From contig NC_092671.1 in NCBI RefSeq assembly GCF_964355755.1, positions 24,006,070 through 24,070,069 of the forward strand: a DNA stretch of 64,000 nucleotides, in the 5' to 3' direction. Below the pieces are notes generated by a model. That model was not told the origin of the DNA, ran no database searches, and saw only the letters and a list, made by a program, of their open reading frames with translations. Each line of letters begins with the position of its first letter. Positions within the stretch are counted from its first letter, which is position 1. Positions 282-30,400 of the stretch are shown in pieces. The DNA comes from Antedon mediterranea (taxonomy: Eukaryota > Animalia > Echinodermata). Both the position numbers and the translations under genes were made by a program.

Positions 282-484
282 CTGGTAATACATGAAATCA
301 TCTGTGGTGCAACCGCATTCATCAACAGCGACACATTCTGAGCCACTAAGAACAAATCCGTCGATACATTCACAAGCCTCTACACATGTATCTCCACAAT
401 CCTCCTCTGGAATTGTGTAAGAACATGTGTCTGGACAGGCTGAAGCACATTGAGTGTAACGGCTGTGTGCTGGACAATTAATTG
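282..484 (-). CDS. Exon: TIL domain (module 3)
   Basis: INCPAHSRYTQCASACPDTC...CVEACECIDGFVLSGSECVAVDECGC; 203 nt, phase 1-0, same length as the other two TIL exons. Confidence 0.93.
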
Positions 485-3400: not shown

Positions 3401-6400
3401 TGGTTGGCAGCCAATTTGACAATTGTTTTGCTTTAAATTACAGTTTTTTCAGGTAAATAATTTTTTTTCGATCCAAGTCTTGGTCAAAGTGGATAACTAT
3501 TATGTGATGGCATATGGCATATTTAACAACAAATGTTTTAAGAATTATTTTTTCAGGGGGACAATACATCTTTAAAGGTCACTTCATTTTTAAATTGAAT
3601 GAATGTATTTAAACACAGTCACGCATACCATTGCATGTACCATAAAAAATGACAAAGGTTGCCTCCCCTAAATCTGATTAAAATGACCTCAAATTATACT
3701 ACAACACGTTGTTACCGGGGCTCTTGGTGGCCACTAACCCCCACCTACGTGATGCTTGCTTCGCTAGCATAGCCGCCCCCGGGAAGATTATAGCGCAACC
3801 GCTGACAACAACTACTTATAAATCCCCTGATAATAGTTTACAGTACTTACCAGTGTAACAGAATCTCTATTCAGGCGTATCTCATGTCCACTAACATTTA
3901 CCATAACATGTTCTGCAATAGATACTCCACTATATCCATTCCTATATTGATTTTTTACCGTGACTGTAAATAGAGGTGGAGTATGAAGAGTATCTCTGGT
4001 AAAAACATACGAACAGTTGCCTTGAAAGTCAAACCGCTTTCTATCAAAGTTTTTGTAATGAGGATCACCCCAACCAGAGCATTGACAAGCTGAAAATAAT
4101 TTAATTTAAATCAATTTCAAAATATTCCATAATAATATAGTAATTGTTTGTTATAAAATCATGTTGGTAAAGATTGGAAAGTTGTAAATCACTGTCCAAG
4201 CACATCCGTTTTGGTGGTGTAAAGTTCAAGAATTCTGCCTAATGATCTTTTATATACATCCTGAAAATAAAGATTCTTGTCAATGGACACAATTTAATCA
4301 CACTACGTAATCCATTCATTAACAAGAATGAAAAAGTGGATTTTATTTGTTCGAAAGATAAGACTCTTTATAAAAATAGATAGAAGTGCTAATATAAAAG
4401 AGATAGATGATACATACCTCGACGACCTTCAGTTAGAAAGGAGAAGATTGAAACAGAGAAAAGAATTAGTATATACTGTAGTTTATATAAGTTATGAAAC
4501 AAAAAGTCTGAGAAAATAAAATACTAATTTTTTTTTTACATGTTTATTTTTAAAAAGCTCATATTTTATGACTTGTAAATATAATTATGTTATACTATGA
4601 TGCGCACATTTTTAAAGTGGTGAAAGTATTTTAAAAAATGAACACTATTTTCTACAGAATATTTACCGTTGACTCGTCGTGGGCGACGTCGGTTTCTTGA
4701 GGATCCTGACAAGGAAAAAAGCAGAAATATTATAACTTCACATGTATTTTAGGTAAAGCCAGGTAAGCACACATTAAAGAATTACAGGTTGGTTACAAAT
4801 TATTTTACCTCTGTACACCTAATAAACTTTTTCTACACCATTTAATCAGACTGCTATCTCTTGTGAACATTGGCTTATATTTTATGATCTTTGTGAGCAA
4901 AGTGTTTTTCCTGCAAGTTAACTCAACTTATAGCTATTAAGAACTCCACACCAGGCTGAATGTATAGTTATTTTTGACACATTTTGACAAACAAATCAGC
5001 AATTATTGTCAATAAGCATAATTTAACATAAACTAATTTATAAATATATAGTAATACACATTGAAGAAATTTATAAGTCAAAAGATGATGAAATTAATGA
5101 ATAATATTTTCTATTTATTTTCTATTAATATAATAATTATGCATTGTTTTTTTATTCTATCAGAAAATACAATAAACTTACTTAATGCTGTATCATACAA
5201 GAAATGAAAGGATGAATCAAAGATAAAGAAAAAAAGAGATATTGGTATGTATACAAAATAAAAGAATTTGCAGTTGCATTATATTGAAAGTATGAAAGTT
5301 GTTTGTACTACTTTTATCATGTAGGTATAAAACTTGCTTCATTAATGGTAAACTGTCTGTGTCATTACAGTGGTGTGCACCACAATTTATGCATGCGCGC
5401 TTGGTAAAAATTAAAAATGCTCAAAATCAATTTGAGAAGAGTAGAGCTAGTTTCACCCTAATTTATTTGTGTTGCATGCTCATTTGTTATTAAATTTTGA
5501 TATGGATCAGGGTTATATAACAAGCATTAAAAGTTATGTTTGAGATTAGTAATAGTTCAATTCTAGTTTACTTTATTTTTCATTGGTTAGATATATACTG
5601 TATAATATATCATATCATCATAAAAGATTTCATTTTCAATTGCATCACAATATTACATGTTTGAATAAACTCACCTTTTCGGGCTAATTTTGGAAGATTT
5701 AAAAGATAGGAAGAAAGGTTTGGTTAGAATTAGAGTAGATAGTAGTTTCAGTTTTTAAATTGTAAAATAGGCCACATGAAATAAGAAAATAAAGAATGCT
5801 TATCACACTAAGCTATTACAAAATTGAAGATTTAGAAAAAACAGAAAATCCGCCGAATTGCTTTGTTTGGAAATAAATTTGAAGTAAAGAATGATAGATT
5901 GGAAACCAAAAAAATAAAAAATAATAATAAGATAAGCATTATGGAAAAATATATCACTGTATGTTGTAAAAATGCATTAAATCAATTCAACTATTGAGGC
6001 AAGATAAAAAAAAATGTGCCCCACTGAACTAAAACTAAATATCCTATAAATACTAATGTATCTACTGTAGTCTAAAAAAATCCCTTTCTAGCACTAATGC
6101 TGCCCGTTATATTAGGTTATTGATTAGGGAAATTAATTTCATGAAACGCCCCAACACCTACACAATTATTCTGCATTTGTAATCAATCAATATTTATTAA
6201 ACACAGAGTATTGAATATCAATAAAAACAAAAAAGCAATGACACCTCCAAACATAATACTACCATCTGTGTCAACACTAAATCCACCTGTTTCATGCTAC
6301 TTACATACAAAACAATGTAGATAAGCTCAATCGAAATGATGAAGTAAGCATTATGTAATCAACTAATAGATAGACTAATAAATCTATTCTATCTGTAATG

Positions 6401-9400
6401 AACTTAATCCCATTAACATGAAAAAGACCTTATACTCTTGTATAACCTGGTTCTCATGAAAAAGTGTTGACATTTGCATAACAGTCATCTTTGTAGGAAA
6501 TTATAAAGTTACTCCTGCATAGCATCTTTGTATGTTTAAATTAGGCAAAACAAATTTTTAAAACAAGGTTTTAGAAAATATTTAATGCTTATCAACATGA
6601 CAGCCTCAAGTTATATGCAAGAATATATGGTATAAAAGGAAATTGTTTTCATACCCTGACGCTCTTCTCCTAGATAATTAAATAATTTTTTTATAAATTT
6701 TTAGTTAATACTTGATACCTTATATCAAAGGAATAATCAAAAAAAAAAGAAAGAAGAAAATTACACATGAAGAATGTATCATGTATGGGTTATAAATTGT
6801 GTAAAATGTTATTCAATTTCTTTAGAGTAGGCCTGTTCTATTAACAATAATTAATATTGTTGATTGATATTGAATAAAGATTGTTATGGAAATACTTACG
6901 ACTTCTTTCTACTCTAGGTGCAACAGGCTCTCCATCTAAAATATAAGATAATTAATATCTATAATCTTAATATAATCATTTAAATAAACTAGGTAGTTTA
7001 TCTCAGGGGAGAATAAAATTACAGAATAATGTCGTTCTTTCCTGCTTATCATAGTCTGGTACTGTAGCAGCAAACTGTTTTTAAAAGTGGATGATCTATA
7101 TATAAATTTACGTAAGGGAAAAATTTGGTAAATCGCGCTTTACTTCTAGAATTTTTACTCGATGGTATATAAAGTTGGTTCATACTTTCGGTACTGATTT
7201 TATTTAAAGTAATTTAGATTTTAAACAAATTATTGTTTTATTACTTTTATTTAATAGTAACCTAAAGGTATGAAAAAAAAAACACAACAGATTAAAAAAA
7301 AAATTTTTTTTCTTCTTTTCTTTGAATTGAAAAAAAAAATCAAGACCTTCTCAATCAATTTATGTTATATCATTATGTATGTTATTCGGCCATCGTAAAA
7401 AATAATGGAGACACATGGTAATATTAATGATGATAAAAACCAATTTAAACAGTACCATATAATGAAATTTTGCAAATCATTGCCTCTGTAATTGTATACT
7501 TACCCTCATCAATACAACGGAATGATACTTCAAGATACTTGTATGTTCCCACACAAGGATCGGTAAATTCTGCATTGTTTGCACGTAGATTACACTTCCT
7601 TGCATTATTACAGACTGACATGACATGTTCAACAGCACCTTCGGCCCTACACTCAGTGGTTTGTATTGGACCAGTATCACATACTTCTCGATTTTGACGA
7701 CCATACATTGCCCTGATAATATCAATACGGTTTCTTCCACAGTTTAATTTTAAACGGTCATTTTCACAAGCATGCTCTGTATACGATTCAGCAGCTTCCT
7801 GAGCTGAAGTAGGAGAAAAATTAAATTAAATACAAATTGTATAACAAAAATTAATGCTATCTGTCTAATTTTTGGCTAATTTTGGTACAATTAGATTAGG
7901 AACTCACACTTTGATAATATTGATTAAACCTTTTATTAAGACAATATGCATGGATTCCATGACCGAATGTCAAAAAATGACCTTTTAGGAAATAAAGTTT
8001 GTATCATTATACAATACATATGGAGCAATGTGCAAGTGTTATTTTCAAAATAAAAAAGAGATACATTATTGGAAACAGTAATAATGAAAAATCGCACAAA
8101 TTCACATACCTCCAGCACAACAGTATGTCACACGTAGCATTTTTCGAATTCCTGGACATGGGTCACCAAAAACATTGTTTTTAGCTTTCAACGAACAAGA
8201 ACGTCTTAATTCACACTTTTCTACTGCCTTTTGAAAAGAAATTTCAGAAGCACAATCTGTTGGAAAGTTAGGCTGACCATCACATGTTTCAACCTCATCA
8301 CGGCCGTAAAGGGCGGATATGATATGTAAATCACCAGATTCACACTCCAATCTAAGTTTATCTCTTTCACAGGCTTGTACGGTTTGAGGTACACAATCTG
8401 AAATGTAAATGTGTGGCAATAACGCAATTGTTGAATTGCGCACAGGTATGGACGTACAATATTTATGTCATACAGTTGCCATTAAACAGCGCTCATTCAT
8501 TTGTAATGAAGGATGCACTGGTTCTGCAAAAAGGCCAAATGTGTACTTTGCTGCGATTATTATTCTAAGATATTTTACTGGATAGGTGTGGGGTGTTGGG
8601 CATTTATTCAAATAAATACTATAGGCCTAATTGGTATAATTAATACATTATTTAGTTTAAACATCTTATGAAACAATATTATGTAATACTTAGCATGTTT
8701 AGAATATAGCTATTGCTTTGCAATTTTTAACATTTTTTTAATATATACTGCAATAACAAATAAAGAACATTGCTAAAAGATAATAAACATATTACAAAAT
8801 GTATGTGAATAATATTATGACTCACCATCTTCAGGAATAGGTATTGCTGAAATTATTACAAAAAAAAACATTTAAATAGAATTTACTGTGCAAACATTAT
8901 AATTGATTAAAACCAATAAAATTCAACATTACTACCTAGTAACAAGTACATAAAAAAATTGACCTTACTTCAGATTTCTTCTAGTTTTAACCATCAATAC
9001 ACTTATGAACGGAATTGAGACTAATAGTTTTGCCCAGAAAATATATAGTACAATTTCCTCAGCAAACACTTACATAGAATTTCTGAAGAAATTTGCGGCA
9101 TTCAACTTTTTTCAACATTTAATTACATTTTTCTACTGAAACATTTTATTTAATCAACTTAAACCATGTAATATGACTTACTCTGACAACTTTCAATACC
9201 ATCTCCTACATAGCCATTTGTACAATGACAACCATGATCACCTTCAACACTTGTACAGGAAGCATGTTCATTACAAGTAATGTCCTCACACACAACACTG
9301 TCTCCTGATTGACAAATACATTCTAGTGTGCAGTTAGGCGAAACCCACTCATCTCCAAGCTTAAGAAAAAAGGTTAGAAAACAAATAAGAACTTGCATTT

Positions 9401-12400
9401 AATGCTGTACTATGATCATTATCATTGCATCTGAAATCAGATAAACCATAGAGAATAAGTACAAATGGATAGTAATTGTTACAGTATGAATCCTACATAC
9501 CATTTTTGATTTTCACTTTTTTACAAGATTAAGTACAACAAAACAATATACTCTAGTAGCTAGATCAACTTTCGTATGCACTTTGAGGTCCAGAGAATTT
9601 GACTTCAGAAATTGGTTTAGGGTGGTCAAACAATCATTTTTGGCTTGGTTACACATTTTGAAAATGTGGCGAAAGGTCAAAAGGTCAGGGTGAAAGGTCA
9701 TAAGACCAAACACCAATATGTCCTTAAATCTGAACAACCACTGGTCACAGCGAAGTAATTTTGGTCTCAAATTGATCAGAAGGTATACATTTATATTTAG
9801 TCTAATGGGACATTTTAGTTTAAAATGACCGGAAATGCCATTTCTGACCTTTGACCCACAACCCAGGGCATGTATTTATCTCCGTAACTACTGGTCGTAG
9901 ACACTTGAATTTGGTTTTAAATTGTTCGAAATATATATTTTGTTATATGAAAAACATTTTGAAAAATGTTACAAAACGTCAAAGGGTCAGGGTCAAGGGT
10001 TATATAAACAAATAAATAAAGGTACTTGTATCTCGGCAACCACTGGTCGCAGCAAGTCAATTTTGGTCTCAAAATGTTCAGAAGGCATGCATTTATATTC
10101 CGTCTAATGGGGCATTTTAGTAAAAAATGATCAGAAATGCCATTCCTGACCTTTGACCCACATACCATGGCATCTTCATATCTCTGTAAGTACTGGTCAT
10201 AGAAACTTAAATTTGGTATCAAATTGTTTGAAATATACATATTTACATTCATTGTAATAGAAAATGTGGTTAAAAGATGAACAGAAAATACTATTACTAA
10301 TGTTTCAAACAAAAAACATATCTCTACACAACTTATCCTTAGACAGTAATGTTATGCAATATGATACTTTAAATTGCTGTCCACGAGAACATTTTGATAT
10401 AAACGTCAAGCTCAACAGTTCTTTTCAGAATGCTAGAAGTAACTTGCCATGTGTATCCGATTAAACGCCCCGGGCATTTATTGTTCAAAAGGGTTTTTAG
10501 GGGGAGGGGAGGCATCTTTATTTGGGGTATAATATGGTAACATGTATAATCAAATAAATACCACCTAGATGTAAAAAAATACAGCACAATTAATATAAAA
10601 AAATGATAACATTATGTCAAAATGCTTGGTAAATTGTAGATTATGGTAATTAATGAAATGTGTTGTGATACAATTATTTTGTAAATGCATGTGGCGGAGC
10701 GTTTATTCCACATGATGTTCTATAGGATGGAATGGAGGCTTTTATTCAAAGCGGGTGTGTTAATTCGAATAAATACTCGAGCTCAACAGTTAAGAATGCT
10801 AGAAGTAACTTACTATAGTTACCCGAATAAAAGGTCCGGGCATTTAGTTATTCAGGGAAGGCGTTTATTTTGTTTGGGTGTAATAATGGTAACATGTATA
10901 ATCAAATAAATACACCCCAGATAAAAAAAAAAAAATTAATATAATAAGAATAATATCTGGATTAAACCTCATTCTATCCTGTTGCAAGTACAATCATGTA
11001 ATAAAAGGTATCACAGACAACTATAATAGACCAATTCATTGTCATGATTCCGTAACACTGTTGCATAATATTTTTGAATGTTACCGACAAAACTTATAAT
11101 ATGTATAAGTTTTGTCGGTGTATATTATACACGTCTGTTCCCAGTGTAGATAATAAAACAATATATGTTTCTGGAGATTTATTATCAATACCACTAGAAA
11201 CTTTGACATGTTTTAGGTACTGAATTCATTGATAATAAAAGCATCAGAAGTTATCATGATAAAATCATACTACAACACTGTACACAAGGGTGTTTTCAGG
11301 AAAGCTGGACATATTGTACAATAGTAATGAAGCTATGTATTGGCATTTAAAAATATGCAAAAGATTGTTGTCAAATTGTAGTCACAAACAAACAGATGAT
11401 AGAATGAAGATCCATTATGAGTGCAATTGTGTCAGGATAATGATGTGTCATTGTTTTATATAATTATACTGGCACCTGGAAGAGAAGATCCATTTAATGT
11501 TATCTATGACAGTGTCACTTTTATTCTAAAAGACAGAAACATTTCGTTAAAAAGCATAAAGAAAACAACGAATCATGTAAAGTACCTTTTATCAGTTGAG
11601 AAACGAATTATAATTATTAAAATTAGAGTATTTATTCGAATTAACACCCGCTTTGAATAAAAGCCTCTCTCAAATAAACGCCACCATTCCCTCTAATAGA
11701 ACACCATTACATGTGGAATACGCCCGCCACATGCATTTACACAATGATTGTATCTACAATTTACCAAGCATTTTTTTCACTTTTTGATATTAATTGTGCT
11801 GTATTTTTTTTTACATCTAGGTGGTATTTATTTGATTATACATATTACCATATTATACCACAAATAAAGATGCCTCCCCTGCCCCTAAAAACCCCTTTGA
11901 ACAATAAATGCCCGGGGAGTTTAATCGGATACACATGGCAAGTTACTTCTAGCATTCTGAAAATAACTGTTGAGCTTGACGTTTCTATCAATGTTCTTGG
12001 GGTCAGCAATAACTAGTACTTGAAATTGAAACAATTTAAAGTATCAGTTATTGCATAACATTACTGTCTAAGGATAAGTTATGTAGAGATATGTTTTTTG
12101 TTTGAAACATTAGTAATAGTATTTCTGTTCATCTTTTAACCACATTTTCTATTAAAATGAATGTAAATATGTATATTTCGAACAATTTGATACCAAATTT
12201 AAGTTTCTACGACCAGTACTTACAGAGATATGAAGATGCCATGATATGTGGGTCAAAGGTCAGAAATGGCATTTCTGATACTTTTTGACTAAAATGTCCC
12301 ATTAGATTGAATATGAAAGCATGCCTTCTGAACATTTTGAGACTAAAATTGACTTGCTGCGACGAGTGGTTGCCGAGATACAAGTATCTATTTTTATTTG

Positions 12401-15400
12401 TTCATATAACCTCTGACCTTGACCCTTTGACCTTTTGTAACATTTTTAAAAATGTGCTACAAATAATAAATATTTATTTCAAACAATTTAAGACCAAATT
12501 TAAGTGTCTACGATCAGTAGTTACGGAGATACATACATGCCCTGAGGTGTGGGTCAAAGGTCAGAAATGGCATTTCCGGTCATTTTTGACTAAAATGTCC
12601 CATTAGACTGAATATAAATGTATATCTTCTGATCAATTTGAGACCAAAATTACTTCGCTGTGACCACTAGTTGTTGAGATTTAAGGACATATTGGTGTTT
12701 GGTCTTATGACCTTTCACCCTGACCTTTTGACCTTTCGCCACATTTTCAAAATGTGTAACCAAGCCAAAAATGATTGTTTGACCACCCTAAACCAATTTC
12801 TGAAGTCAGATTCTCTGGACCTCAAAGTGCATACGAAAGTTGATCTAGCTACTAGAGTAATAATACAATGTATATTCTTTTTATTTTCAATACAGTAAAC
12901 TGAAAAATGATACAGTACCATGTGATAGACACCATCAGGGTCTAAACAGCCACACTCTTCTTGGGGAACACATACTACTCCGCTTAACATATGTCCATCA
13001 TCACATTCGCATCCTTCCACACATAGTTCCACACATGCATCAACTGCCTCATTAAATGCACATGTCACAGGGCAGGCTGACATACATGTAGTGTAATGGC
13101 TATTCTCCGGGCATTCCATTGCTGTAGGTAAACATTATATACTAAAATCAATATAAACAATTATAAAAAAAAAAAGGATTTTAACCTATAAGAAATTAAT
13201 TGAGTCACATGATTTTGCCATTACATTGCGGTCATGTGACTCAATTACACACTAAACCATCTGACAGCGTAGAGTCTTCGTACATGGAATTTTTTTTTTT
13301 TTTGCTTTTCTTATTCAGTTTAAGATTATTAACAAAATTTAATATTTGTAAGCGTGTGTGAATGTTATAATATATAAAATTGGCTATTCTATTATGACCT
13401 GAGTTTTTGATAACCAGTAAGGGTATCTCTACAAATTTGATTTAATAAATCACACACTTGTTAGTTACTGGACAAAGAAATATAATCTGATGATATAACA
13501 TGATAAAATTGATCTCAAGATAATTGACATACTAAATATTGCTAAGAAAAGAATATATAAATGAAGAAATAGAGATTCTGACAAAATCAATATGGTATAG
13601 GTATGTATACATATGACCTAATTAAATTTGTTTTAAAAGTAATAAAAACATATATATATATGCTGCTTACGGCACATGGTATCAGTTCTGTATGTTCCTA
13701 TTGGTATATTCATATCTCTACAGGATGTGAAGTAATTGTGCAAGTTATTACACAACTGCATTATGTCTCCCAGGTTAGCCATGTCAAATAGACATTCTTC
13801 AAAGTTTTCAGTTGGTTCAATTGTGTTATGACAAGGTGCAAACACACCATCAGGATCTGTTATCTGGCCACACATTATTGTAGAGGAATACATTGCTCTC
13901 TTCTCTTCACTGATTTCTCTTGGTTCAATCTCAGAGGGTTCACATCTATCAAATTACACAATTTATGCACAGTCAATCACCCATATATTCAACTTTGCTT
14001 AAGTCGCCATAGAATTAGTAGAATTATCATGCTTGTAGAATTTCTTAATTCTTCCCTATACATTAATGTGTTTAAGTAAATTTGTATATATTTGTATAAA
14101 CGTGAACATATGAACAGTAAACCTTGAGTAATATTCGGTTCTTGTTGCATTTATTTTGTTGAAAAATCTGTAACAAAAAGTTTGCACATTTCAAACTTGT
14201 TTATGCTAGAACCAAATTCGACTTGGAAATGAAATATTTTAAATACACAAATATGCTTTCATATTATGTAAATAATAATTTAGAAATTATTAAACAGACA
14301 AATATTTTTTTTAAAATATTTAAAAAGAATGAATCCTGTAAATCATGTATGATTCCACCAAACTTATGAGTTAAAATAACGATTGTGAGGCATTTTATAA
14401 AATAGCAGACTGCCTTAAAATCATGTTGCCAGAAATTATTCTCATCATCAGAACAGAAAACAATGCCTAGAGTACTTATATACCAATATGAATCCGGTGT
14501 ATAAAAATTGAATGCGTTATTTACCTGAGATCGGAATTCCAACTGTCTCCCCATTCATTGCCGTTATTTGTTGTGCCACCACCAGCAACAGTCAAATCAT
14601 TGCTTGGATCTCCATCATAGTTACCACATAAACCTTCTGTATGGTTTTGATACTTTTCATTAACACCAGCTTTTACACGGTTATTGCCATCCCATTCTAC
14701 CCAAAATCCGACAGTTGAAGAAGATACCAAAACACTACATCCAACCTTTTCTACAGTCAAATCAGCATTTGGCGGTGTAAATGGAAGTGCTCTTCTTATT
14801 CCATTAACCTGAAAAAAATTACATTTTTGTATGAATATTAAATTTACAAGCATTACTACTTTTAAAAGATTTGATTAAATAAAAAGAACAAAAAACATAA
14901 TATAGAATAAAGAACAGTAGTTACCCAAGTCTCATCGTCACGATTTAATCGTATATTAAAGTCAATGGCATTAACACTGGCATTAACAATGACATGGTCT
15001 GCCAATGTTACCGTTCGTTTAGTACGGAATTGATTCTTGACATAAACAATAAACTGTGAAGGTGAATTAAGTCCATCTCTAAGAAAGATATAGGTACAAT
15101 TGCCTTGGTAATCCTGTCTTTTACCATCGAATGTTGTATAATGGGGATCACCACTACCTACACACTCGTTACTTCCTATGAAAAGAAAAGAAAACAAATT
15201 ATTTCAATTAATTACAGTTTATTTAATTTCATGATCAGTACAAATAACATAAATATTTTGTTTTAATATTTGGAAAACTGGATTTGATAATAAGAGAACA
15301 TTTTGAAAGGCTGACTATTTAACAAGGCCTCATTGAATTCAAGAGTCAGACTCAATTCAACAGAAACATTTGTATTTGTATATTATAACACACTTGACTG

Positions 15401-18400
15401 TATTATAGCAACTTGATTGGTTAATTACGCATTGACACATTTCATTTGGAATTAACCCAAGTGATATCTAATGGTGGTAATTTACACGTTCTAATGCACA
15501 TTCATATTTTCATAACTATATTCAGATATTGTTGACTGGTCGCTTTCCGAAAATCAACTTCTAACTGCTCTACTCAGTGTCTCAAGTTGGAGCACTGCTT
15601 TTTTTAATGGTCTAGCATTTATCAATGATTTACGATGGATAAATTGAATAAAAGTAGGTGTGTTATGAACAAATAATGAATATTTTGTATTCATGAATTG
15701 ATAGAATATGTCATTCGATAAAAAAAGTTCTGCTCTGTTTTAAACTTAGCTTAGCGTTGTTAAAGATAGAGCTGTAAATTGTTCAACTCATGAAATGTTC
15801 CTACCATCCAACTCATAAAACATTCAATATTGTAGAAAATTGTAAAAAAGTTTAATAAAAGTCATTGATTTATATAAAACGTTGAACTGGAAGTTAAAGT
15901 CAAGTAAATGACCTTGCTTAATGCTACAAAAGTGGAAAAAATAAAAATTAGAACATTTTGTATATAATACATTTGAAAGCATAGATAATCTACAACATAT
16001 TTTAATTTATTGTACATTATTGCTTACCTCCATCTCGTCCTGTGTAAGTGTATAAAGAATGATAGATAGATAGACAGATATAGATATAAATATTATAAAG
16101 TTCAGACAAAATATGATGCAACATATTTATTAATCAATTAAAATTGTTAAAATGAAATAATGGTCTAATGTTATAATGGTAAGGCATCTACCTATTACAT
16201 TTACAGTAACACATCCAAATGCCAACTTTAAGTCAATGGCTACCAGATGTCTCTGTGAGACGGTTATTTGAACCAGTACCAGTACCAGTATTATATAATT
16301 GTCTCCTACAAGTACTAAAAATATTATTAAAGCCAATTATTTTACATATTCACAATTTATAATGTTTGCTTTGACTCACCTCTTCGTCCTTTAGATTTAA
16401 AGATGTAAAAAAGAGAGATGTTTAGTAAGAATGATTTAGCAGAAATGAAGTAATGGTTCTTTAATCATTTACATGAAAAAGAACAAGCAAGTTGTTACTC
16501 ATCTAATCAATGTCTATTTTTTTATCTGCACTTAAGTTAAGTTAACTGTAGTTAATAGTTTTGTGTAGAGCTCAATAAAGATTATTTCATCTTACTCACC
16601 TTTTCGGCCTGCATTTGGATTAGGGTGTGCAAGAGATAGATAGAAAGAAATTGTTGTTTGGATAAAATATAGTATTGATTGTAATTGATACCATAAAAAG
16701 GATAGTGTATGAAATTAACCATTTGTATTATATGTATATACATAGAAATATGAAGCTTGTCAATGTTATATGTTATATACACTATTACTACATTTACTAT
16801 TCCTATGTTTTATACTATACATGTTATTTTTGTATGCATTGAATTTTTGAAATAAAAGTTTATATTACTTATTACTTGTTTGGTTAGATGTCCTTATTAC
16901 TGAGAACATCTGGTTTCATATAAATTAAATTTAGTTTGACTCACCTCTTCGTCCTGAGATTTAGAGTAAGATGTAAAATAGGAAAGAGAATTTATAGTAA
17001 GAATTAATGAAGTAGATACTATATAAGCAAGTTTGAAAAAGTAAAAAGTCAATTTCCTCAAAACGTCCCTCAATACCTACTCCCGAAACCATAATTTCTT
17101 ATTATTTGATTCAATTTTAGTTTTTACTTACCTCTTCGTCCTAAGATTTAAACATGCAAATATAGGAAAAGAAATATGAACAAAATGATAACGTAGATAT
17201 AACATTATAGTGTGAAATCTCCTTATACATTAAATGACCCTGAATCAAATTCTACTATGAAAAAAATGCTATTTGAAGACAGCAAACTTTACTTCACTAC
17301 AGAAATTTGATTTATGAAGGCAATGTCATAATTAAACTTTTTAGATGATTTATTGTATTTCAGTTTTATTTACACAATATTTAGATACTAAGCTTGAATC
17401 TTGTCTTGAACCATGTCTTCAACTCATATAAACACATAATTTTGATCCACATGGTGAATAAAACTAAGTATCAGAATTTACTAAAACTACAGTAATTTTG
17501 TTTGGTCAGTTTCAACTGATACTTTCAAGAATTAGGTGAATATTTGGTAAACTTCTTTTACCACTTTGAGCCTGCAATCCACCTTGAGGATAAAGCCTAT
17601 CGCTGAAATGATCCATTAAGGCAAATTTATACAGGTAAAGGTAAAGGTAAGCGGAAAAGGTTGTAGGTGCTTGTTGGCCTCGAGGCTAGTGCATGTTGCA
17701 GGCACTGCTGGCCTGGACTAGACTATTATGACTGTCTGTCAGTAGGCTTAAATTAGGCCTGGTTTTAGAGGTGCTTGTCTAATAATGTTGCAAATGTATC
17801 TGTTCTTTATACAAACACACATTCACGTCATAGTTGTTTGTATTTTTGAAGAAGTTTCAAAACTAGGCTAGGGCATGGCACTCATATTTATTGTCATCTT
17901 GGACTCGACGGACTCACGCAAAAAAATTGTTGATTGATGACGTCACATCAATCATGCCGTTGATTGGCCAGAACCCACAATTACCGAGTGATATTTTCAA
18001 AAAATCAAATCTGTTTCTATCCTGAGCAGGTTTCTGCTCAATCGCTTGTCCGCGTTCTGTTTAAATTGTCATAAGAAATAACATAGATTCTATTTTTTTG
18101 TTTTCAGCTTACCATTACTGCTCGTCTGTGTAAATTGGCCTTTACCCTCATAAGCTTCTCTTATAACTTGCCATTAATTTATGTGGGATGAGCTTATTAC
18201 CAGAATCAGAACCGCATGTATATTTCTGTTTTATGAAACATTTAACAAATAAAACCAAAATAAACTTACCTCTACGGGATGGTCTTTCTCTTCTTCGATG
18301 ACGATCTCTGCGACTTCTTCCTCCATCTGATTTTGACAAATGCAAATACAAAATTAAATGTATGACATCATGATACAAAACAAATATGAAAAAATACAAA

Positions 18401-21400
18401 TTACTAATTTCTGAAAACAGTATTAATACACTAAATACAAATATACAATTTATTCGAAAGTTAGGCCATGTGTGCCTTGGCTTTCAAATAACTAAGAAAA
18501 TGATCCTGACATAAAAACAAAGCATACTTACCATCTTGAATAGTTTCCCAGATAGACCTCAGTGCTTGTTGATCTAAACAAAATATATATTATTTTTTAT
18601 CTGCCTTTAGATAATATGTAAGCTTGGTGTATTTATTGACAAACAAGGAAACCATACAAATCAAGAGCATAATGTTAAATTGGCAGATCCATCCCAAGAA
18701 AAATAAATTAGTTAGTTAGAACTAATGAATTAGCTAATTAATTTGATGTAATTATATATTTTTTCATTACAAATTAAGAGACTATACTATTACTATATAA
18801 CTTAAAATTTAATGACAAAAACGATTGACGTTTGGGAACCATCATGGAACCATTCTTAAGAACAAATAAATAAAATCAACAACTATACAAAATACAATAT
18901 ATTCTAAACTAGTATACTAACCTCCATCAAAACCACATCGATATGTGACATCCAAAAACTTGTAAGTGCCTGGACATGGATCTCCAAAATGACTATTAAT
19001 TGCATCTATAGAACAACTGTGTTCCCCCTGGCATGCATCTCGCAGAACAGAGAGAGAGTGCTCTGATGTGCATTCAGTTGTCTGGATGCTACTATGAGGG
19101 CAACTATCTGGATCTGTCCTACCATACATTGCATCCATAATGTCAATATCAGAATGCCCACAATGAAGATTCATTCTGTCATGTTCACACACTTTCATAG
19201 TAAATGGTGCAGAAAATCCTAGAAAAATATTTATCCTTATTTATCATTTAGCATATAAATAAATTATAAATGGTTAATTGATTCAGTGTGAAAGACTATT
19301 TTCTAATTGGTCCAAATTTGGTCAAATTATTGAAATGTGCAATTGGAAACATACCTTCTCGTTCTGTGTTTTCTGCAAATGTAAATAGAAATATATTTAT
19401 GATAAAAAAACATCAGTGTAAAAATTTAATGAGAAAAATAACATTGGTTTCATTTATTTGCCTCTATGAACTTAAGATAACTAAACATTTTCTCTGATCA
19501 GGGAAGTGTAATTTCATTCTTCCCTGCACCTTTAGGTTTATCAAGAATTGGTGTTATCCTTTCTTTGCTCTATGGGAGCATTTCTGTAATTAGTTTTTGT
19601 ATCTAGATAACATTTAAGGAACAAAACTCATTTTTAGCTCTATTTGAAAACCCAAACTTAAACTTCATATTACACATTTGTTAGTCCTAAAGTATTTCCG
19701 AAAAACGTTACCTGAGATACACTGGTAAGTTATTTTTAGGTATTTGCTTTGGCCTTCACATGGATTACCAAAGAAACGTATATCAGCTGGAATGCTGCAT
19801 GAATGCAAGTTATTGCAATGCTGTTTCACCAAGAAAGTAGCTGAATTAGCAGTACATGAAAGGTCTTGATTACTTTCATCATTTTCACATATATTACTTT
19901 CAGCACGACCAAAGAATGCTGACTCAATGTATATATTCTCTGCACCACATTCCATCTCAATATTTTCATTTTCACAAACAATTTCTTCATTTGTGATTAC
20001 GTGAGATACAATTTCTAGAATAACATTTGATAGAAATATTTTTAGTAATTTTGGTAACCTGATATTTAACTTGCAGGGACAGTTTAAATAAAAAACCAAT
20101 GTGAGTGGGAGAAAACTTCTAAAACTGATAATGTTAAAACAATTATAAAGAGTGATAAAAATACACAGACCTCCGTACAAATTCATGTACAAAAGTTTAC
20201 ACAAAACTCTACAACCAATCAATCTACTTGACTGGTATCAAGCCAGTTTGCCAAATCACACTTTACTGAATAATGGACATTCGACTAATGGAAACAAATT
20301 ACGATTATGATCAAGTTCAAAATCAAACTGAGATTCAGCAAATTGAAGTTTGGCAAACTAGGATTCGGCCAACAGGCCTAGAATAATGTGAATAAATGAA
20401 ATTCTCAATGCATATGGCTTTGCAGTCATCAAAATGTGCATGTACCTTCACATGTTTCTATACCATTTCCTTCATAGCCTTCATTACAATAACACCCATG
20501 ATTTCCTTCAACTGATATACAAGCAGCATTTGAATTACAATGCATATCACTGCATACAATATTCCGTCCAACAGTGCACTGACATGACATTGAACAGTTC
20601 AGTGCTGTCCACTGTGAATGCAGCTACAAATAGACACAAATATAATTAGTAAAAACGAAATTAATGTAAGGCATGTAAAATCAAACACAGATTTACAAAC
20701 TGCATAGTAACACAAGAAAATAAAAAAATAATTATTAAGATTCGACAATAGCGTAATTAATAGAAAAGAAATAATAGAAAAACTAAAGGTATACATATTT
20801 AGCCATGTTCAATATTATAATACGTATCTTGCTCCAAATGGTTCAATAATAAGTTTAATGATAATATAATCTTCAGGAATAAATAATATTTAAAGTGTGA
20901 CCATTGAGATTAGATTAGTTAAATTTATACTATAGTTCCATGGTACAGCACAAGCATGGAAGCATTAGCTTTCCTCCATGGTGTTAAGCTGTAAAATCAA
21001 TTTACAAATAAAAATTAAGAGAAACAAATTAAGAATCCAATCAAAAATAAGTATCAATAAAATAAACAGAAGAAGTCTGAGAAAAACTAGTGTCAAATAA
21101 ACTAAAATAAATAAACATTATCATTCTCATCCAAATCAGTTACGTAATCCTATAATGTGTTGAAAACCATCAAAAGACTGTACTGTATGTAAATATGACT
21201 AAACTAATGTTTTTGCTGAGTCTAGTAATTAAACATTGGTCATTTTTGCATAACCATTATATTGAAGGTATAATAAAACATTAATGCGCTTTATATTAAG
21301 GGATTAAATCAAAATTGGACTTACTGGAAAGTAAAATCCTTCATCATCATTGCAACCACATTCAGCAAGCGGAATACACACTGTTCCTTGCCGTATAAAA

Positions 21401-24400
21401 CCCTCATTACATTCACAACCTTCAACACAAGGTTCATCACAATCTTCCTCCCGTTCTATTGATGGACATGTTGATTGACAAGCAGACATACAATCAGAAT
21501 AATGACTGTTTTCTTCGCATTCAATAGCTTAAAACAAAATATTGAAAAGGTTTATTCTTTTAAACAAATCAAATGGTTTAAAGTTTCATTGAATACTAGT
21601 AAAACATGGTGATTCCGATTTATGAAAAATAAATGATATTAAAATGTCACACTATCATCATACTGTAAACATAGACATCATTTTTCTATCTATAATTGAA
21701 GATTGCCCTTTTTTCTTTCTATAGTTACTTTCAATATTCTGAATCATGTTCTAAAACCACATATTGCCTGGAATGAATAAATATACTGTATTCCAATCTT
21801 TACAAAACCGTCTGCATATTTGTGACTGGGTTTGAAAATGTTGTCAATGTGTGTAAGCATTGTAAAATATACAAACGATTAAATCATGGCAGTTTCGCTT
21901 ACTGTTGTTTTGAATTGAATAAAATATGGCACTTACGGCACAATGAAGATGTTCTGAATGAGCTAAGAGCTATACCAGCTTCTCTACAGGTGTCAAAATA
22001 TTCTTCCAAATTATTGCACAGTTGAGTGGAATCGCCTAAATGGCACATATCAAACAGGCAACTATCAAAGATAGGTTGATTGTCTTCTGTGTCAAAGCAA
22101 GGTGCAAATGGACCAGTGGCAAGTGTAAGAATACCACATTGATCTTCTGCACCATACAGATTATTTTCATCTTCGCTACATTCAGGAATCTCACTTGAAT
22201 CAATTGCACGACATAATGGACTAAAAAAACAAATTTATAAAATAATATTACCTTACTATGACATTTAACAATATATTGTACACCAAATTCATGTGCAAAA
22301 AAAGCAAAAAGACCTGTAAACTTTATAGACAAATTTATTAAGGTGGATACTTTAATAGAATCTGTATTTATTATACTGTAGTGACCTAAACTTGTGTTCT
22401 GTTTAAAAGAAGTTAACAGTAATCTTAATTTTTATATGAATATCTTGATATTTCTTTTATGAATATTTAATTAGTTTCTTTTTAACATTTGTTTGCTGCA
22501 AAAGATAATTTTGTATGTATCACACTCTATCTCACACCCTACGTTGGCCTTGATTCGTCGTTCCGATGAAAACGCGTAGTGACCGTGCAGAGTCACTTTG
22601 TCTTTGCCTCTATAAATTTGACCATGGAGAATTACTCCATTATTCAACAATGCAGTGCTAGTTATTGGGTGAAAACAATGCATAGAAGTAAATCACCAAA
22701 AGACCAAAATGATAAAATTGAATTTTATTTGCTTAAAAAAAATTAAAAATGTAATTATTAATACTGTCAATACATTGTCATCGTTGTTATAATTATTACG
22801 ATTTTCACTGACTAACATCAACTGATCAGTATTCGAATGCTTACCCTTGATCAACATTCCAACTATTACCCCATTCATTCGCATCATCAGTTAATGAACC
22901 ATCTGGAAGCATTAGGTCATTGTCAGGATTCCCATCATAGTTACCACATAAACCCTGCACTCTGCCTTGGTATTCATCACTAACACCAACTACAATTTTA
23001 GAATGGCCATCCCATGACAACCAAAATCCAATGTCAGTAACAACCAACACCTTCCTACCAGACATAGATACTGACAAGTGGTTTGATGGAAGGTATGGTA
23101 GAACAGATCTTACACCATTTATCTGCAAACATAAAAATTACTAAATATATCCGATTTAAAAAATAGACATTCATATCAAAGATAAACTTAAATGTTGTAA
23201 GTAACATTTAGTTGATTTATTGAAATTTTAACAATTCAAATACCCTTTTTAAGATTTTGGAATCATATACAAATTTCTATAATCAGCATGGAATAGTTCA
23301 ATTTCAAGAGTACTAGTAAGTTCTGATTGTATACTCACGCCAGAAATCAAGCATAAACTAAATATAATAAAGGGCATCTATTATTACTAAGTGATTCTGC
23401 CTCTGCTTGATATGTACACCCTACTATATATTAGGCCACCACAGCATGTTATAAGAGTTACAATAGATTATCTGATAAAACTTCTAGAAAGTAGGAAGCT
23501 TTTTGCCATTTTCCCTTTGACTGACCAGGGCTTTCATGGTGTTGAATAGTAAACTTTTTTCATCATGAACATGGTAAAGTGGAACGCAGTAAAACACAGA
23601 AACCCTAAACTGCAAAGGGATAATAATTTCAACAGTACATAAATGTATGTATAAATGTATTTTGTATGAATTTACTTACCAAAGTATCTAAGCCTCTGTT
23701 GAGCTGGATTGTTATTCCACTAACATTAACAAGCACATACTCAGCTAAAGTAACATGTGGACGAGATCTGTATTGGTTTTTAACATTTACACTAAATGTT
23801 GGTTCATTGCTATCTGTCACATCTTGGATGAACGTATATGTACAATTACCCTGAAAATTTTTTCGACGACCGTCAAATGTTATATAGTGAGGGTCACCCC
23901 ATCCTATACATGTATTAAATGAGTTATCTTTTCTAAGTCTTCGTATTGGTGTTTCTTCATTTCCTGTTTATTAAACAAAAATTAACTTAATTTTCATGTT
24001 GATATAACAAAAGTATATGTTACATAATGATTTTTTTCTAACAGACCTTTTTCTTTTGTGATATCTAGAAAAGATTTCTATCTCTCTCTAGCTTAATGCT
24101 AAGTAAACATTATAGAATTTATATTTCATAAATAATGTGAACATTTTGAAATTGTAATACTTTATAGAAAGATAGGTGTAAATGATTAGGTCTAGTCAAC
24201 TAGTCTGTTTTAATAATTGTATTTTATTATATAATGTATATTTAAAATTGTAATTATACGTTAATATTAATGTTAAATGTTATTATATTATTTATCCAAT
24301 GTTTATAAATTGTCACGTTTGTTGTAATTCAGTTTTTTTTAACTGCAAGAACAATTGAAATAAATAAACCTTGATTATTATTATTTTATTTTCCTAATTT

Positions 24401-27400
24401 TAGACAATGATCTTCTATTCAAAGCAGATTGTGTACTATGATGTGTATGATACACAGACTTACCATTATCTCCACGGCAACAATAGGTAACTCTAAGAAA
24501 CTTAGTTACTCCTCTGCAGGGGTCACCAAACACAGAGTTATTGGCTCGAACCTTACACCTACGTCTACCATTACATTCAGATCTGACCACATCTAAAGAC
24601 CCTTCAGCCAAACAGTCAATGGGATGCGAGTCTCGCCCTCCACATGACTCCCTTTCATCTCTACCGTAAATGGCATCAATAATCTCTATGTGACCAGAAT
24701 TGCAGTTTAGTTCAAGTTTTTCACGTTCACAAACTTGTGTACTGTCTTCTTCACATACTGTTTCTGGTTCACCTATTACTGGTTCAACTGTTTCAGCTGT
24801 TACTGGTGCAACTGTTTCACCTGTTACTGGTTCAACTGTTACTGGTTCAACTAAAAATAGGCATGTTTTTTCATAAATTTGATTTTTTTTTAAAGCCATT
24901 TTTAAGTGCATGGTTTTTAAAGTTTAACATGCATGTTATTCGTTGTTATATGGCAGTTTCATAAAAATGAATGAAATCTATCACAAAAGGTATACAGAAC
25001 CAAAATTATTTGCAAAAATGGTCTTTCTACGCTGTTTATGTGCAGTGCGCATACATATGCGCGCATGATGCAAATCTAATGTCAATCTAAGTTGTTCCAT
25101 TCTACAGCCTAACTTAATTATGAGGATTCAATTCCCTTTTTTAAAATTATTTTAATTTGCCAATTTGATCTCAAAGAAATAAATAAAAATGTTCAACAAT
25201 ATCAAGCCTGAATAAATGAATACTGTATGCTATCTATACAATACACAAAGACCAACCACTAACAAAAAAAAAGATTTTTAAAATGTTTTAAAAGTGTATT
25301 CATCCTTTCAACAAATCATTTGAGTGAGTTTTTTTTGTTTGCATTTTGCATTGTTAAATATGTTTGGAAAACAAATAACATTTTATAAAATGTACCTAAT
25401 GTAACCCTATAAGTTAATGTCACTCAAAGAGGGTGTTCAGAGTGAGACCTTGTGGGTGTTAAGGATGGAGAGACTCATGTTTTTAGACTGTTACAGTATG
25501 TTGGAACAACCCAATAAAGTGTTGTATTTATAGCTGGATTTCAAGACTCTGCGTGATTGATTATTACCACTAAATACAATCATAGGTTAACTTAGTTCTG
25601 TTTTACTTATATTTACTTTAAATCATAAAAACATAATTGTGTATTGTGTACCAACCTTCACAACAGTAACTGACTCTGAGAAACTTATATGTTCCAGGAC
25701 AAGGGTCTCCAAAAACAGCATTTGTAGCAGAAATGTCGCAGTCACTTTCCCCCTGACAAGTTCTTCTTACTTGCTCTAATGAAGACTCTGCTCTACAATT
25801 TGTATTTTGATTTGTATTTCGACTACAAGCTTGTCTAGAATCACGCCCATAAAGAGCATAAATGATGTTGATGGTACCTTGCTCACAGTGTATGTTCATT
25901 GATTCATGTTCACAAACTTCTGAAGTCTGTGCCACACAGTTTACTAAAAAACAACAACCAAGAATGCACCATATGAGTATATAAACAAAAAAGAAACTTT
26001 TAACAATCGTTTTGTATAGATGCTCAACAATCTTCTGAAAAGGCATAACATTTTTTATACAGGAAAAGACAATTTTATCACAAAATCACTATTATTGCCT
26101 TCAATGCATGAATAATATGCATGACATTTATTTAACGTCTCGACAGGAATACAGTTTGAGTTAACAATCAGGAAACTTTATTTTTACAAAGCATACAAAT
26201 CATTTTATAGCTAAATCATTACTATACTACTTTATATAGATTAACAAAATACAGAGACTACTATTATAAGAAAGCTCGCAAAACTAATGAACCTGAAGAC
26301 TGGGACAAAGTTAAACAACTGAGAAATCAAGTTAATAATTTAAATAGGAATTTAAAAAGAAAATATTGTACAACTACTATTAACGAAAATGCTAAAAATC
26401 CCAAGAAATTATGGAATACAATAAATAAATTAATACCTAAAACTAAACCCAGTATAAATAATGTATATAAAGATAACAATAAAAACTATACATCCAATGA
26501 TAAGGACACAGCCAATGTTTTCAATGCTCATTTTACTTCAATTGGAAGTTCTTTAGCAAATCAATTTACTAACTCCAATAATACTAACTCCAATAATTAT
26601 ACTAGTAACACTTCAGAAAATTGTTTTGCGGGTAACAAATTTGAATTTGATCTTCTTACCCCTGATTACATTTTTAACCAGTTATGTACATTGTCACCTA
26701 ATAAAGCTAAGGGTGTTGATAACTTTGATTGCAAACTTCTTAAACTAGCTGCTCCGATAATTTGTGACTCACTCTCATATATTTGTAATTTTTCTATGTT
26801 CAGTTCTAGATTTCCAGATGAATGGAAACTAGCTAAGGTAACACCTGTATATAAAGATGGGGATATGTCAGACCCTTATAATTACCGCCCAATTTCCGTT
26901 TTACCCATACTTTCAAAACTCTTAGAATCAATCAATTATACTTGTATTTAAGAACTAACAACCTTATTAATCCCTCCCAATCGGGCTTTAGAAGAGGTCA
27001 CTCTACAGAAACTACTCTTTTAGATGTAACTGATTATATTTTAGATAACTTTGATAAAGGACTCTTCTGCTGCTTTATTTCTTGACTTGAAGAAAGCATT
27101 TGATACAGTTAACCATGAAATATTACTTACCAAATTAAGGAATTATGGGTTAAATGATATTGCACTTCACCGGTTTAAATCATATTTAAGTGGACAACCT
27201 CAAGTTGTTTGTATAAATTCAACAAAATCTGAAACCATGAATGTTAATATTGGTGTCCCACAAGGATCAATACTTGGACCTTTACTATTTATTTTATACG
27301 TAAATTCACTTCCTGATTTTCACGCTGCTGCTCTAGCCCGCTACGTCCCATTAGGACTACTCAATCAGAAGCTAAAGCAAGCAGCAGTTATAGTTCTAAG

Positions 27401-30400
27401 GACAGACAGTTTTGTGAAAATGGAAACTCCACTATAATTTATTGATTCCAGCTGCTACAGTAGACCCAAAAAACGTCTGGGAAAGAGTCTATTAGGACAT
27501 GTCATGCTAAAATTACAAATCCCTAAGCATTTCTGGTATATTCACTGTCAGATATTCATTGAATTATTATCGAAACAGGCCATTAAAGTTTGTGTTTGTA
27601 ATAGGATACTTGATAAGTGACCCTCAGATTTGACCTTAGCAATAAAATTAACTAAAGTGACAGAAATTGAGTATTCACTTCTGTAACAAAAAAATAATAT
27701 TTATTCACATATAAAAAAAGAAAAGAAACCCCAAAACCATTGTCTGACAGACAATTTAAGTATTTGTTGCTTTAAATTACATTTTTTTCAGGTAAAATAA
27801 CTATTATGTGACAATAAAATGACACATTCAAAAACATTTGAAATAAAAAATATTTTTCAATAAGCGAGCAGCGTTTTTTGTAAGAAATATTTATTGTTTA
27901 TCTTGTAAATGTGTGATGTATGCAGATGATACAACACTCTTATGTAGTTCATCTGACACTTTAATACTTCAGCATCAACTCAATATCAATCTAAACAAAA
28001 TTATAGAATGGTTTGACCATAATCAACTCACACTAAATCTTAATAAGACCAAGCTTATGGTTTTCAGCACAAATCAGAAAAGGGCAACATTTAAGAATAT
28101 AACTTTACTTCATAATAATGATACTATTGAAAGAGTTGATTCTTTTAAGTATTTAGGTGTCATTTTTGATCCTCAACTAAATTGGAAGGAACATATAGAC
28201 AAAATGTCTTGTAAAATAGCTAAACGTATCGGTGTGATTCGTCGTATTAAGATGTATCTTCCTATGTATACTTTAAAAATGTTAGCAAATGCTTTAATTA
28301 TTCCATTATTTGATTATTGTTGCTGTGTTTGGTCCAATTGTAACATAAGTTTTTCAGATTCTCTTCAGGTTTTAATCAACAGATTAGGTAGAATATTGTT
28401 ATCTGTAGACATGTATACCCCTATTAATGATATCTTAAGTACTCTTGGATGGAGTAGACTTACAGAAAAATGGATGAAAATATTCTTATAATGCTATTTA
28501 AATGTTTAAAAGAAATAGCTCCAAGATACTTAACAATATTATTTCAATTTACTGTAGATAACCATAATAAATGCACCCGCTCCCAAAGTAATAATGACTT
28601 ATCTATTCCATTATGGAATAACTCTCAGGTAAAAGAACTTTTGTTTATAGATCAACTAAATTATGGAATTCTCTACCAAATAACATAAAATCAGAACTGC
28701 ATAATATGTCTTTGGCAACTTTTAAATCTTCACTATAGAAAACATATATGTATTAACCTTTTTGCCTTCACAATTGTAAATAGTTTTATATCTGTTTTCT
28801 TTCTTTTTGTTTTTCTTTTATATTTTATTTTTGTTGTAAATATGTTTACTGAACCACTTTGGAAATCAGTACATTTGTATAGAAAGTGTATTTCAGTTTA
28901 AAGAAAGAAGAAATAAATAAATAAATAATATATCATTAAATTATTAAATTAAAATACCTACCTTCTCCTAAACATTGATATTGAACCTCAAGGTACTTGA
29001 ATGTCCCTGGGCAAGGGTCAGTAAAAACACCATTTGTGGCTAAGATAGAGCACTGTTGTCTACCCTGACAGGAGCTAATCACAGTCTCTCTACTACCATC
29101 AGCTGTACATGTAAAATCACTCATTGGACCAGTTGCGCAGACAGCACCATTTAGACGTCCGTACATTGCATCTACAATGTTGATAGTGCCGTTACACATT
29201 AGCTCCATGGTTTCCCGCTCACAGACTTGTCTAACAGTGTCACCTTGATTTGTAGGTACTAAAAATGATAAACAAAATCTCAGTTTTCTCAGTTTAATTG
29301 TAAAAACAACAACGTTGTGTAATATTTAGAATTTTTATATATCACAGGAATAATAAACCTATTTTGCAATACAAAACATGTGCATGAGAAGCACAAAGGA
29401 TTATTGAATTATGATTGTACAGAAAGTTTATCTAATGAAAAATTGTTTTCGCAATGAAAGTGTACAAATACATTTCCTGTATAGTACTTCATTTACTTTA
29501 TTAGCATGCATGCAATTCAATCAATTTTCCATGGATACATGTCTTCCTGCATAGTAGATAGTAGGCCCTTAAACTATTAAATTGAAAAAATAATGTAGTA
29601 CTGTATTTGTAGTTGTAATATTGTGGAATGAGTCATTCAATGAATAAATACAAAAAATGAAAATGTCAACATTCGTTGGTTTATATGGAACAACAATACA
29701 ATTTATGGTTTATTTTAAATTTATGCAAATAACAGTATATATGTTGAATATTTTTGTAATGAAAAGATTAGATTGTTTTTTACTACATAATATAAAACAA
29801 CATGCAATTATACACAAGACATAAAGAAAGTGAAATAACAATGATGTGAATCATTTTCTTAAAACAATTAAATATGAAGAAGACAATACAATATTACTAT
29901 ACCTTTATTATTACCTATTTCTGAAAACTGATATTGTGGTATGCTAATACTAAAAAAATCTCATATTTCCAAAATGTTTTTTAAACATTACAATCATAAA
30001 TGGAGATAATTATTATTTAGTACTTATGTACTTGTTTAAAATGAGTGATAATAACTTACAACAAAGACTATGCCAATAAAACATGATGATGATAACATTT
30101 GGTTAATTTCAGATACCAATGTAATCAGTAGAAATCATATAAATACTATAGTTTTAGATAATTAACACTGCCGTTCCGCAACCAAAACAATTGATGGGTC
30201 GTGAAATTGTTTCCGATACTGAAACTTTTTATCAATTATACACTGATCTATATGTGAAATGTTCACCTTTTAGGACGTGGATTTAATAACCTACCAACTA
30301 GTTCTACGACGCTACTTTTCAGTAGTTTGTATCGGCTGTGGGAACTTTTACAATGAACATTAGAATAATAGAAAGAACAATATAAACAGGTCCATCTCAA

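Follow-up and report, generated by a model that had tools for sequence, protein, structure and literature searches.

Basic microexons in the inter-domain linker of a lectin/VWD polyprotein gene of Antedon mediterranea, and their possible part in linker cutting

The microexon array and its host gene

The window analysed here is a 64,000-nt stretch of the Antedon mediterranea genome (assembly GCF_964355755.1, contig NC_092671.1, positions 24,006,070 to 24,070,069). Its minus strand carries the gene of a lectin/VWD polyprotein, probably a secreted one. In the linker between a SUEL lectin exon and the second VWD domain (VWD2), this gene has a tandem array of five microexons. The five microexons are real, and RNA verifies them in part. 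The features of this region, in window coordinates and in the order of transcription, are the following.

282..50030, minus strand: host gene, extending past the window start (Pfam and exon model)
20014-19712, minus strand: SUEL lectin exon (Pfam, RNA contig)
19372-19355, minus strand: 18-nt spacer exon, phase 1-1 (18 letters at this place in the RNA contig, a match in length only)
19218-18922, minus strand: SUEL lectin exon upstream of the linker (Pfam PF02140, RNA contig)
18573-18532, minus strand: 42-nt linker exon (in the RNA contig)
18326-18270, minus strand: 57-nt Arg-rich exon with two R-X-R-R motifs (in the RNA contig by depth and length arithmetic)
17140-17132, minus strand: microexon 1, 9 nt, GACGAAGAG, adds Gly-Arg-Arg (splice signals, AG-free zone)
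16953-16945, minus strand: microexon 2, 9 nt, GACGAAGAG (splice signals, AG-free zone; upstream flank homologous to that of copy 4)
16608-16600, minus strand: microexon 3, 9 nt, GCCGAAAAG, adds Gly-Arg-Lys (splice signals, AG-free zone; skipped in the RNA contig)
16388-16380, minus strand: microexon 4, 9 nt, GACGAAGAG (splice signals, flank comparison, AG-free zone)
16039-16028, minus strand: microexon 5, 12 nt, adds Gly-Arg-Asp-Gly (splice signals, AG-free zone; skipped in the RNA contig)
15175-14925, minus strand: first exon of VWD2, with a Cys five residues before the Asp of GDPH (Pfam PF00094, RNA contig)
14808-14525, minus strand: second exon of VWD2 (Pfam, RNA contig)

All five microexons lie where the first-pass annotation, made from the sequence alone, had placed them; each is preceded by AG and followed by GT(A/G)AG(T/C), and all are in phase 1-1. 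The identity of three copies also stood: GACGAAGAG makes up copies 1, 2 and 4 and has no further occurrence on either strand of the 64 kb. Their size, with canonical splice sites, falls within the 3-27 nt of microexons. The 3.1-kb span between exons 18326-18270 and 15175-14925 contains five distinct donors of the microexon type, counted as AG-(3n up to 30 nt)-GTRAG with a pyrimidine-rich acceptor. Dinucleotide shuffles of the span gave a mean of 0.088 such donors and a maximum of 2, so that at least five were reached in 0 of 1000; the other 22 intervals between large exons have two altogether. Upstream of the acceptor, every microexon has an AG-free zone of 65-147 nt, and 64 of 1462 other AGs of the gene attain a zone of 58 nt, a cut picked after inspecting the five. 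With a small splice matrix (cut at 2 for acceptors and 5 for donors) the acceptors of three copies scored 6.5, 4.9 and 4.1, and copies 3 and 5 fell under the cut, which speaks against equal strength of the copies. Neural microexons of the SRRM4/eMIC type have UGC near the acceptor and are included in a neural-specific manner; in a search for this signal, TGC was found within 25 nt of the acceptor in two of the five microexons. The introns between successive microexons measure 178, 336, 211 and 340 nt. A TRF repeat scan did not report the array, and automated annotation is likely to overlook its exons. High-copy repeats with very high depth in the DNA runs occupy ~17700-18150 and 15550-15800, in the introns flanking the array.

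The exon-plus-intron unit had been described as tandemly duplicated. This holds for copies 2 and 4, whose upstream introns are more alike than expected by chance (as high in 0 of 200 shuffles and 1 of 300 control pairs). It is weaker for copies 1 and 2 (2 of 300 control pairs as high in an 80-nt upstream window), and it fails for the other eight of ten copy pairs, which are not above controls in the same window. The downstream flanks show essentially no alignment beyond controls. Many pairs were tested in these comparisons, with p-levels uncorrected. The flank motifs quoted earlier are present at copies 2 and 4, and flank similarity across the array is only partly confirmed. A duplication of two exons at once (copies 2 and 3 giving 4 and 5), prompted by the introns of 336 and 340 nt, gained no support, 50 of 200 shuffles being as high. 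Global flank identity among the copies is 45-66%; judged from this, the array is old and not a recent expansion. Differences among the copies are synonymous or Arg-to-Lys. All five microexons look maintained, because their AG-free zones of 65-147 nt are kept while the flanks are at most 66% alike.

The domain order of the host gene by Pfam is FAMeT-SUEL-FAMeT-SUEL-F5/8C-SUELx3-[VWD-C8-TIL-TILa/EGF-SUELx2]x2-VWD-C8-TIL. A Pfam match was obtained for 26 of 27 exon translations, the EGF match being under its curated cut-off. The exon model comprises 31 exons from 29258 to 282, which encode 1942 stop-free residues with 7.7% Cys, a net charge of -147 and three GDPH motifs; it starts at 29258, and the 5' end and signal peptide of the gene were not located. 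Further small spacer exons of phase 1-1 with strong splice scores are seen between domains at 50030-50013, 39018-38980, 38832-38827 and 8846-8826 (minus strand; 18, 39, 6 and 21 nt), the 6-nt exon 38832-38827 adding Ala-Thr. At 32267-34978 a 43-nt unit is repeated 63 times, 96% alike, in an intron that appears to split the F5/8C domain. One SUEL exon begins with a short tandem repeat of Thr, Glu, Pro and Val (24757-24853), possibly an O-glycosylated spacer. Broken frames at 26211-28690 and 60283-62106 (both plus strand), which by eye we take to resemble LINE reverse transcriptase, were also noted, the former in an intron of the host gene.

Splicing of the array in RNA

Five sequencing runs were listed. 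Run X1 contained 26% of the words and was guessed to be RNA, and X2 and X4 are DNA runs of one other sample. We accepted X1 as RNA because its contig joins pieces at AG/GT borders and because 4 of 30 bins are without X1 depth though both DNA runs cover them. X1 is one run of one study, and both its sample and its study differ from those of X2 and X4. Compared with the window, X1 has 3 mismatched letters among ~1140 in exons and 1 among ~370 in introns.

A contig of X1 (8503 nt, depth 59.4) aligns as exon-sized pieces and probably starts inside the SUEL exon 28962-29258. Between 18922 and 15175 it holds 108 letters, which equals 42+57+9. At the joint 15177/18269 it reads CTTCGT, and of the possible forms only GACGAAGAG yields these letters. 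The X1 transcript therefore contains one GACGAAGAG copy. Microexons 3 and 5 and the other two GACGAAGAG copies are absent from it; which of the three identical copies entered it is indistinguishable from the letters. The linker with all five microexons, proposed in the first-pass annotation as the spliced form, was translated correctly there and is not the form seen, since the X1 contig has one of the five. The expectation that microexons can be left out without a frameshift is borne out, four being absent and one kept. Direct splicing of 18270 to 15175, for which a check in RNA had been suggested, was not found, one GACGAAGAG copy lying between. As to tuning by splicing, invariant inclusion of all five is refuted, and the evidence comprises only one isoform in one run.

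Collapse of the repeat during assembly was considered and ruled out. The full-inclusion form has no repeated 30-mer, and it lacks 25 of the 287 31-mers of the one-copy form. Among the 32 inclusion subsets, just the three single-copy ones hold all 31-mers of the one-copy form. Since the 25 junction 31-mers are specific to the one-copy form, the junction derives from real molecules. No second isoform is present as a contig in X1, and the bin depths of the flanking exons (18, 13.1 and 4.36) equal one contig's share. Logan contigs are built from a k=31 graph after simplification by Minia3, a step in which, by the accessible part of the description, variants are lost (10.1101/2024.07.30.605881), so that minor isoforms would not show.

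Two unspliced X1 contigs (depth ~3) lie at 17069-17436, over the intron around microexon 1 only, and may be pre-mRNA. The long contig has 2110 letters before 20014, compared with 1902 from the modelled exons up to 25943 (~208 more).

Linker peptides and a possible cutting site

The furin-type consensus is R-X-(K/R)-R. The inter-domain linker contains it twice constitutively, three times in the RNA-supported form and at most five times. The 32 inclusion subsets give 20 distinct linker peptides with 2 to 5 R-X-R-R sites; the net charge of the linker core ranges from +8 to +16 over these peptides and is +10 in the RNA-supported form. One Gly-Arg-Arg unit makes an R-G-R-R site directly before VWD, and the 12-nt microexon is charge-neutral. 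The earlier suggestion that splicing sets the number of cleavage sites is weakened: the count varies only from 2 to 5, and an on/off switch of cleavage is out of the question, as two R-X-R-R sites are supplied by the 57-nt exon, which is constitutive. The weight given to frame neutrality is also reduced, because this is the default in the gene, 16 of the 31 modelled exons being of phase 1-1.

We tentatively favour, at somewhat less than an even chance, a reading in which the microexons are skippable in frame, the linker likely offers a furin-type site that would free a lectin module, and the extra copies likely add redundant sites. The model for it is FCGBP, in which, according to the available parts of the reports, all GDPH sites are cleaved early and the fragments remain joined by one disulfide, C472-C611, around D477 (PMC8267560; PMC10880436). 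The GDPH autocleavage motif is present, at the motif level, in all three VWD domains of the Antedon protein. In each of them the Asp of GDPH is preceded by a Cys at a distance of 5 residues and followed, ~130-135 residues on, by the Cys of a G(L/V)CG motif. This is the spacing given for C472, D477 and C611 of FCGBP (PMC8267560). As in FCGBP, each VWD would self-cleave at GDPH and stay tied via the disulfide of the Cys just upstream. With the fragments tied in this way, SUEL-SUEL would part from VWD, and the lectin pairs be freed, only if the chain were cut upstream of the tethering Cys; the Arg-rich linker sits exactly there. Extra Gly-Arg-Arg copies would lengthen the linker and add sites, with an effect at most on the efficiency of the cut; as two sites are constitutive and the subsets carry 2 to 5, splicing could at most grade it. 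The four skipped copies may serve other tissues or be included less often, and this would account for their intact splice signals.

A second Arg-rich linker is predicted, from DNA alone, before VWD3. It consists of in-frame exons of 36, 15, 9, 39 and 9 nt with two R-X-R-R motifs. The features outside the VWD2 region are listed here.

23963-23680, minus strand: first exon of VWD1; ahead of GDPH it has a short basic stretch containing one R-X-X-R (Pfam)
4418..6935, minus strand: second Arg-rich linker, before VWD3
6935-6900, minus strand: second-linker exon
6669-6655, minus strand: second-linker exon
5683-5675, minus strand: second-linker exon, Ala-Arg-Lys
4705-4667, minus strand: second-linker exon, two R-X-R-R
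4426-4418, minus strand: second-linker exon, Gly-Arg-Arg

Exon 4426-4418 encodes the same tripeptide as GACGAAGAG with three synonymous differences, as 50 of 1512 triple changes do. If these exons are homologous, the unchanged tripeptide suggests constraint on the peptide of the Gly-Arg-Arg exons. Exon 5683-5675 is one letter apart from copy 3 (GCCGAAAAG). Of the six R-X-(K/R)-R motifs within modelled residues 1-1617, five lie in the two linkers, which are also the two most basic 25-residue windows of the modelled part, acidic as it is overall. No microexon array is predicted before VWD1; polybasic stretches precede all three VWD domains. A weakly scoring 18-nt in-frame candidate exon is seen in the linker before VWD1 at 24064-24047 (minus strand).

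A cut in the linker gains some support from the acorn worm Saccoglossus, whose lectin/VWD protein P0080 (41% identity) has a short basic stretch before both of its VWDs. Several points weigh against it. With two R-X-R-R sites constitutive, selection for further sites is hard to motivate, and the Lys and Asp variant microexons contribute none. The RNA represents one isoform from one run and one study. Among 150 relatives, 9 of 437 G(D/N)PH motifs carry an upstream polybasic stretch, which is not a family trait. In flatworm glue proteins, according to the accessible text, the product that is secreted still contains long Lys/Arg regions (PMC6410801); a basic stretch can thus remain uncut. The sea star protein Sfp1 is described as autocatalytically cleaved only, the word 'furin' having 0 occurrences in the available part of the paper (PMC9382459).

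The skipped copies may instead be old duplicates that are rarely or interchangeably spliced and have no regulated effect on the protein, only one copy being of consequence. The single contig with one copy and the absence of a minor-isoform contig on the flanking exons agree with this, as do the low to middling acceptor scores, and the choice among three identical copies would be silent. Yet AG, GT, a consensus donor and a long AG-free zone are intact at every one of the five though their flanks are mostly unalignable, their differences spare the peptide or replace Arg by Lys, and minor isoforms would be hidden by the loss of variants in Logan contigs (10.1101/2024.07.30.605881, as far as available); we regard idle copies as somewhat unlikely. 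A further possibility is that the RNA donor bore an allele with fewer copies, so that the window's individual may splice all five. X1 and the DNA runs do come from different samples and studies, and the intronic letters of X1 lie only around copy 1 (the absent cover of copies 2-5 is not used as evidence). However, X1 is nearly identical to the window in exons and introns (differences as given above), the array appears old, and a deletion would have to take four exons over >900 nt or come in two pieces, which makes such a polymorphism very unlikely.

If the linker stays uncut, it could provide an acidic protein with a cationic patch for binding to polyanions or to neighbouring chains, with splicing setting the charge of the patch from +8 to +16. 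This range over 20 peptides beside a strongly acidic remainder fits such a role, and each 9-nt variant retains two basic residues, even those adding no R-X-R-R. In the sources as available, the flatworm protein Mlig-ap1 links lectin, VWD, C8, TIL and EGF domains with Lys/Arg regions and its function is blocked by heparin (PMC6410801), GRK repeats occur in flatworm adhesives (PMC6745481, PMC9229212, PMC8621496), and the basic KSRK insert of agrin makes a heparin site (PMC6450144). The patch is ~20-35 residues here against thousands in flatworms, though, the 12-nt exon is neutral and the observed form, at +10, is near the low end. The dominance of Arg and the R-X-R-R motifs suit convertase sites, and no graded isoforms were seen in X1. 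We judge a cationic role of an uncut linker unlikely. A regulated choice, in which tissues or stages would select 0-5 tripeptide exons independently in the two linkers and thereby set lectin-module shedding or cationic charge, also seems improbable to us. It would require some mechanism, as yet unexplained, by which just one of the three identical 9-nt exons is normally let in. Steric mutual exclusion was ruled out as such a mechanism, the exons being too far apart (introns 178-340 nt; identical copies 178-756 nt).

A Gly with a dibasic pair after it is the amidation signal of neuropeptide precursors, and four of the five microexons encode just this. The units could thus be read as amidation or dibasic signals for the release of bioactive peptides. 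We reject this reading as having almost no likelihood: the units would release only Gly plus basic residues, nothing but Gly lies between successive sites, trimming would remove the residue in front of each Gly, which is basic too, and the host is a Cys-rich multi-domain protein. A collagen-like Gly-X-Y stretch was ruled out as too short and, we infer, outside a collagen context.

Models of marine adhesive and mucus proteins are built on assemblies in which exons of this kind are missed or flattened. A basic microexon cassette just upstream of a tethering Cys offers a testable link between splicing and the disassembly or charge of a polyprotein; for temporary adhesion both enzymatic release and charge competition have been proposed (PMC6410801, in the part available). 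The array is also a compact natural test of how the spliceosome selects one of several identical microexons. Should the extra copies prove idle, the array would be a case of ordinary exon duplication in a low-complexity linker.

Relatives and comparable systems

Profile searches and a search with P0080 gave no orthologue, only relatives of the FCGBP, zonadhesin and mucin kind. The closest module-level match among 219 proteins is the Saccoglossus zonadhesin-like XP_006813313.1 (P0080), 41% identical over one module and thus too distant for an orthologue test. A single-exon homologue search scored 0 of 20 candidates. Among the 150 relatives, SUEL occurs in three, and SUEL together with FAMeT in one. 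In P0080 and the scallop lectin/VWD protein P0072 the domains are accompanied by long low-complexity repeats of charged residues (Lys/Glu/Arg or Lys/Glu/His).

By domain content the protein resembles the sea star adhesive protein Sfp1, with which it shares the set FAMeT, SUEL, F5/8C, VWD-C8-TIL and EGF as given in the available descriptions (PMC9382459, PMC7037938, PMC8621496). GDPH-type autocleavage motifs and high Cys are common to both (7.7% here, 5% reported for Sfp1). Unlike here, no polybasic linker, furin step or microexon array appears in the accessible part of the Sfp1 description. No protein named Sfp1 was among the named matches of the homologue and profile searches, and the likeness is one of domain set alone. 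FCGBP and zonadhesin-like proteins have the same repeated VWD-C8-TIL-TILa with GDPH and a tethering Cys pair, as far as described (PMC8267560, PMC10880436). In the Antedon gene, lectin pairs and Arg-rich linkers are inserted between these modules, and such linkers are rare in the relatives (the 9 of 437 above).

The flatworm proteins Mlig-ap1 and Mile-ap3 are described as having Gly-Arg-Lys/Arg units beside lectin and VWD-C8-TIL-EGF domains, as here (PMC6410801, PMC6745481, PMC9229212), and heparin is reported to block flatworm attachment (PMC6410801, in the part available). Their GRK region extends over thousands of residues, compared with tens here, and the string 'splic' has 0 occurrences in the accessible text of three papers (PMC6745481, PMC9229212, PMC8621496). 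The Antedon linkers do not form such a region: they amount to two short patches, in which no stretch of 25 residues includes more than 12 basic ones.

Small exons that add charge are known from other proteins, in the sources as available. The KSRK exon at agrin site A is one, but it is a single basic exon and contains no convertase motif (PMC6450144). Avian fast troponin T has up to seven repeated charge-adding P exons spliced by stage and tissue; unlike the polyprotein here, troponin T is intracellular and acidic, and its P exons build no convertase motifs (PMC7581897). Schistosome microexon genes (MEGs) combine symmetric 6-36-nt exons in secreted proteins with alternative splicing and microexon duplication, features that the array here has or may have. 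Microexons make up ~80% of a MEG, whereas here they are limited to the linkers of a large domain protein (PMC5825161). The Antedon gene is not of this class, its small exons making up a few percent of the 1942 modelled residues. In Gpr126 a spliced linker and a separate furin site are described (PMC6954182, in the part available). A literature search of incomplete coverage found no VWD/lectin protein with basic microexons in a tandem array. By comparison with these systems, each element of the array has a precedent.

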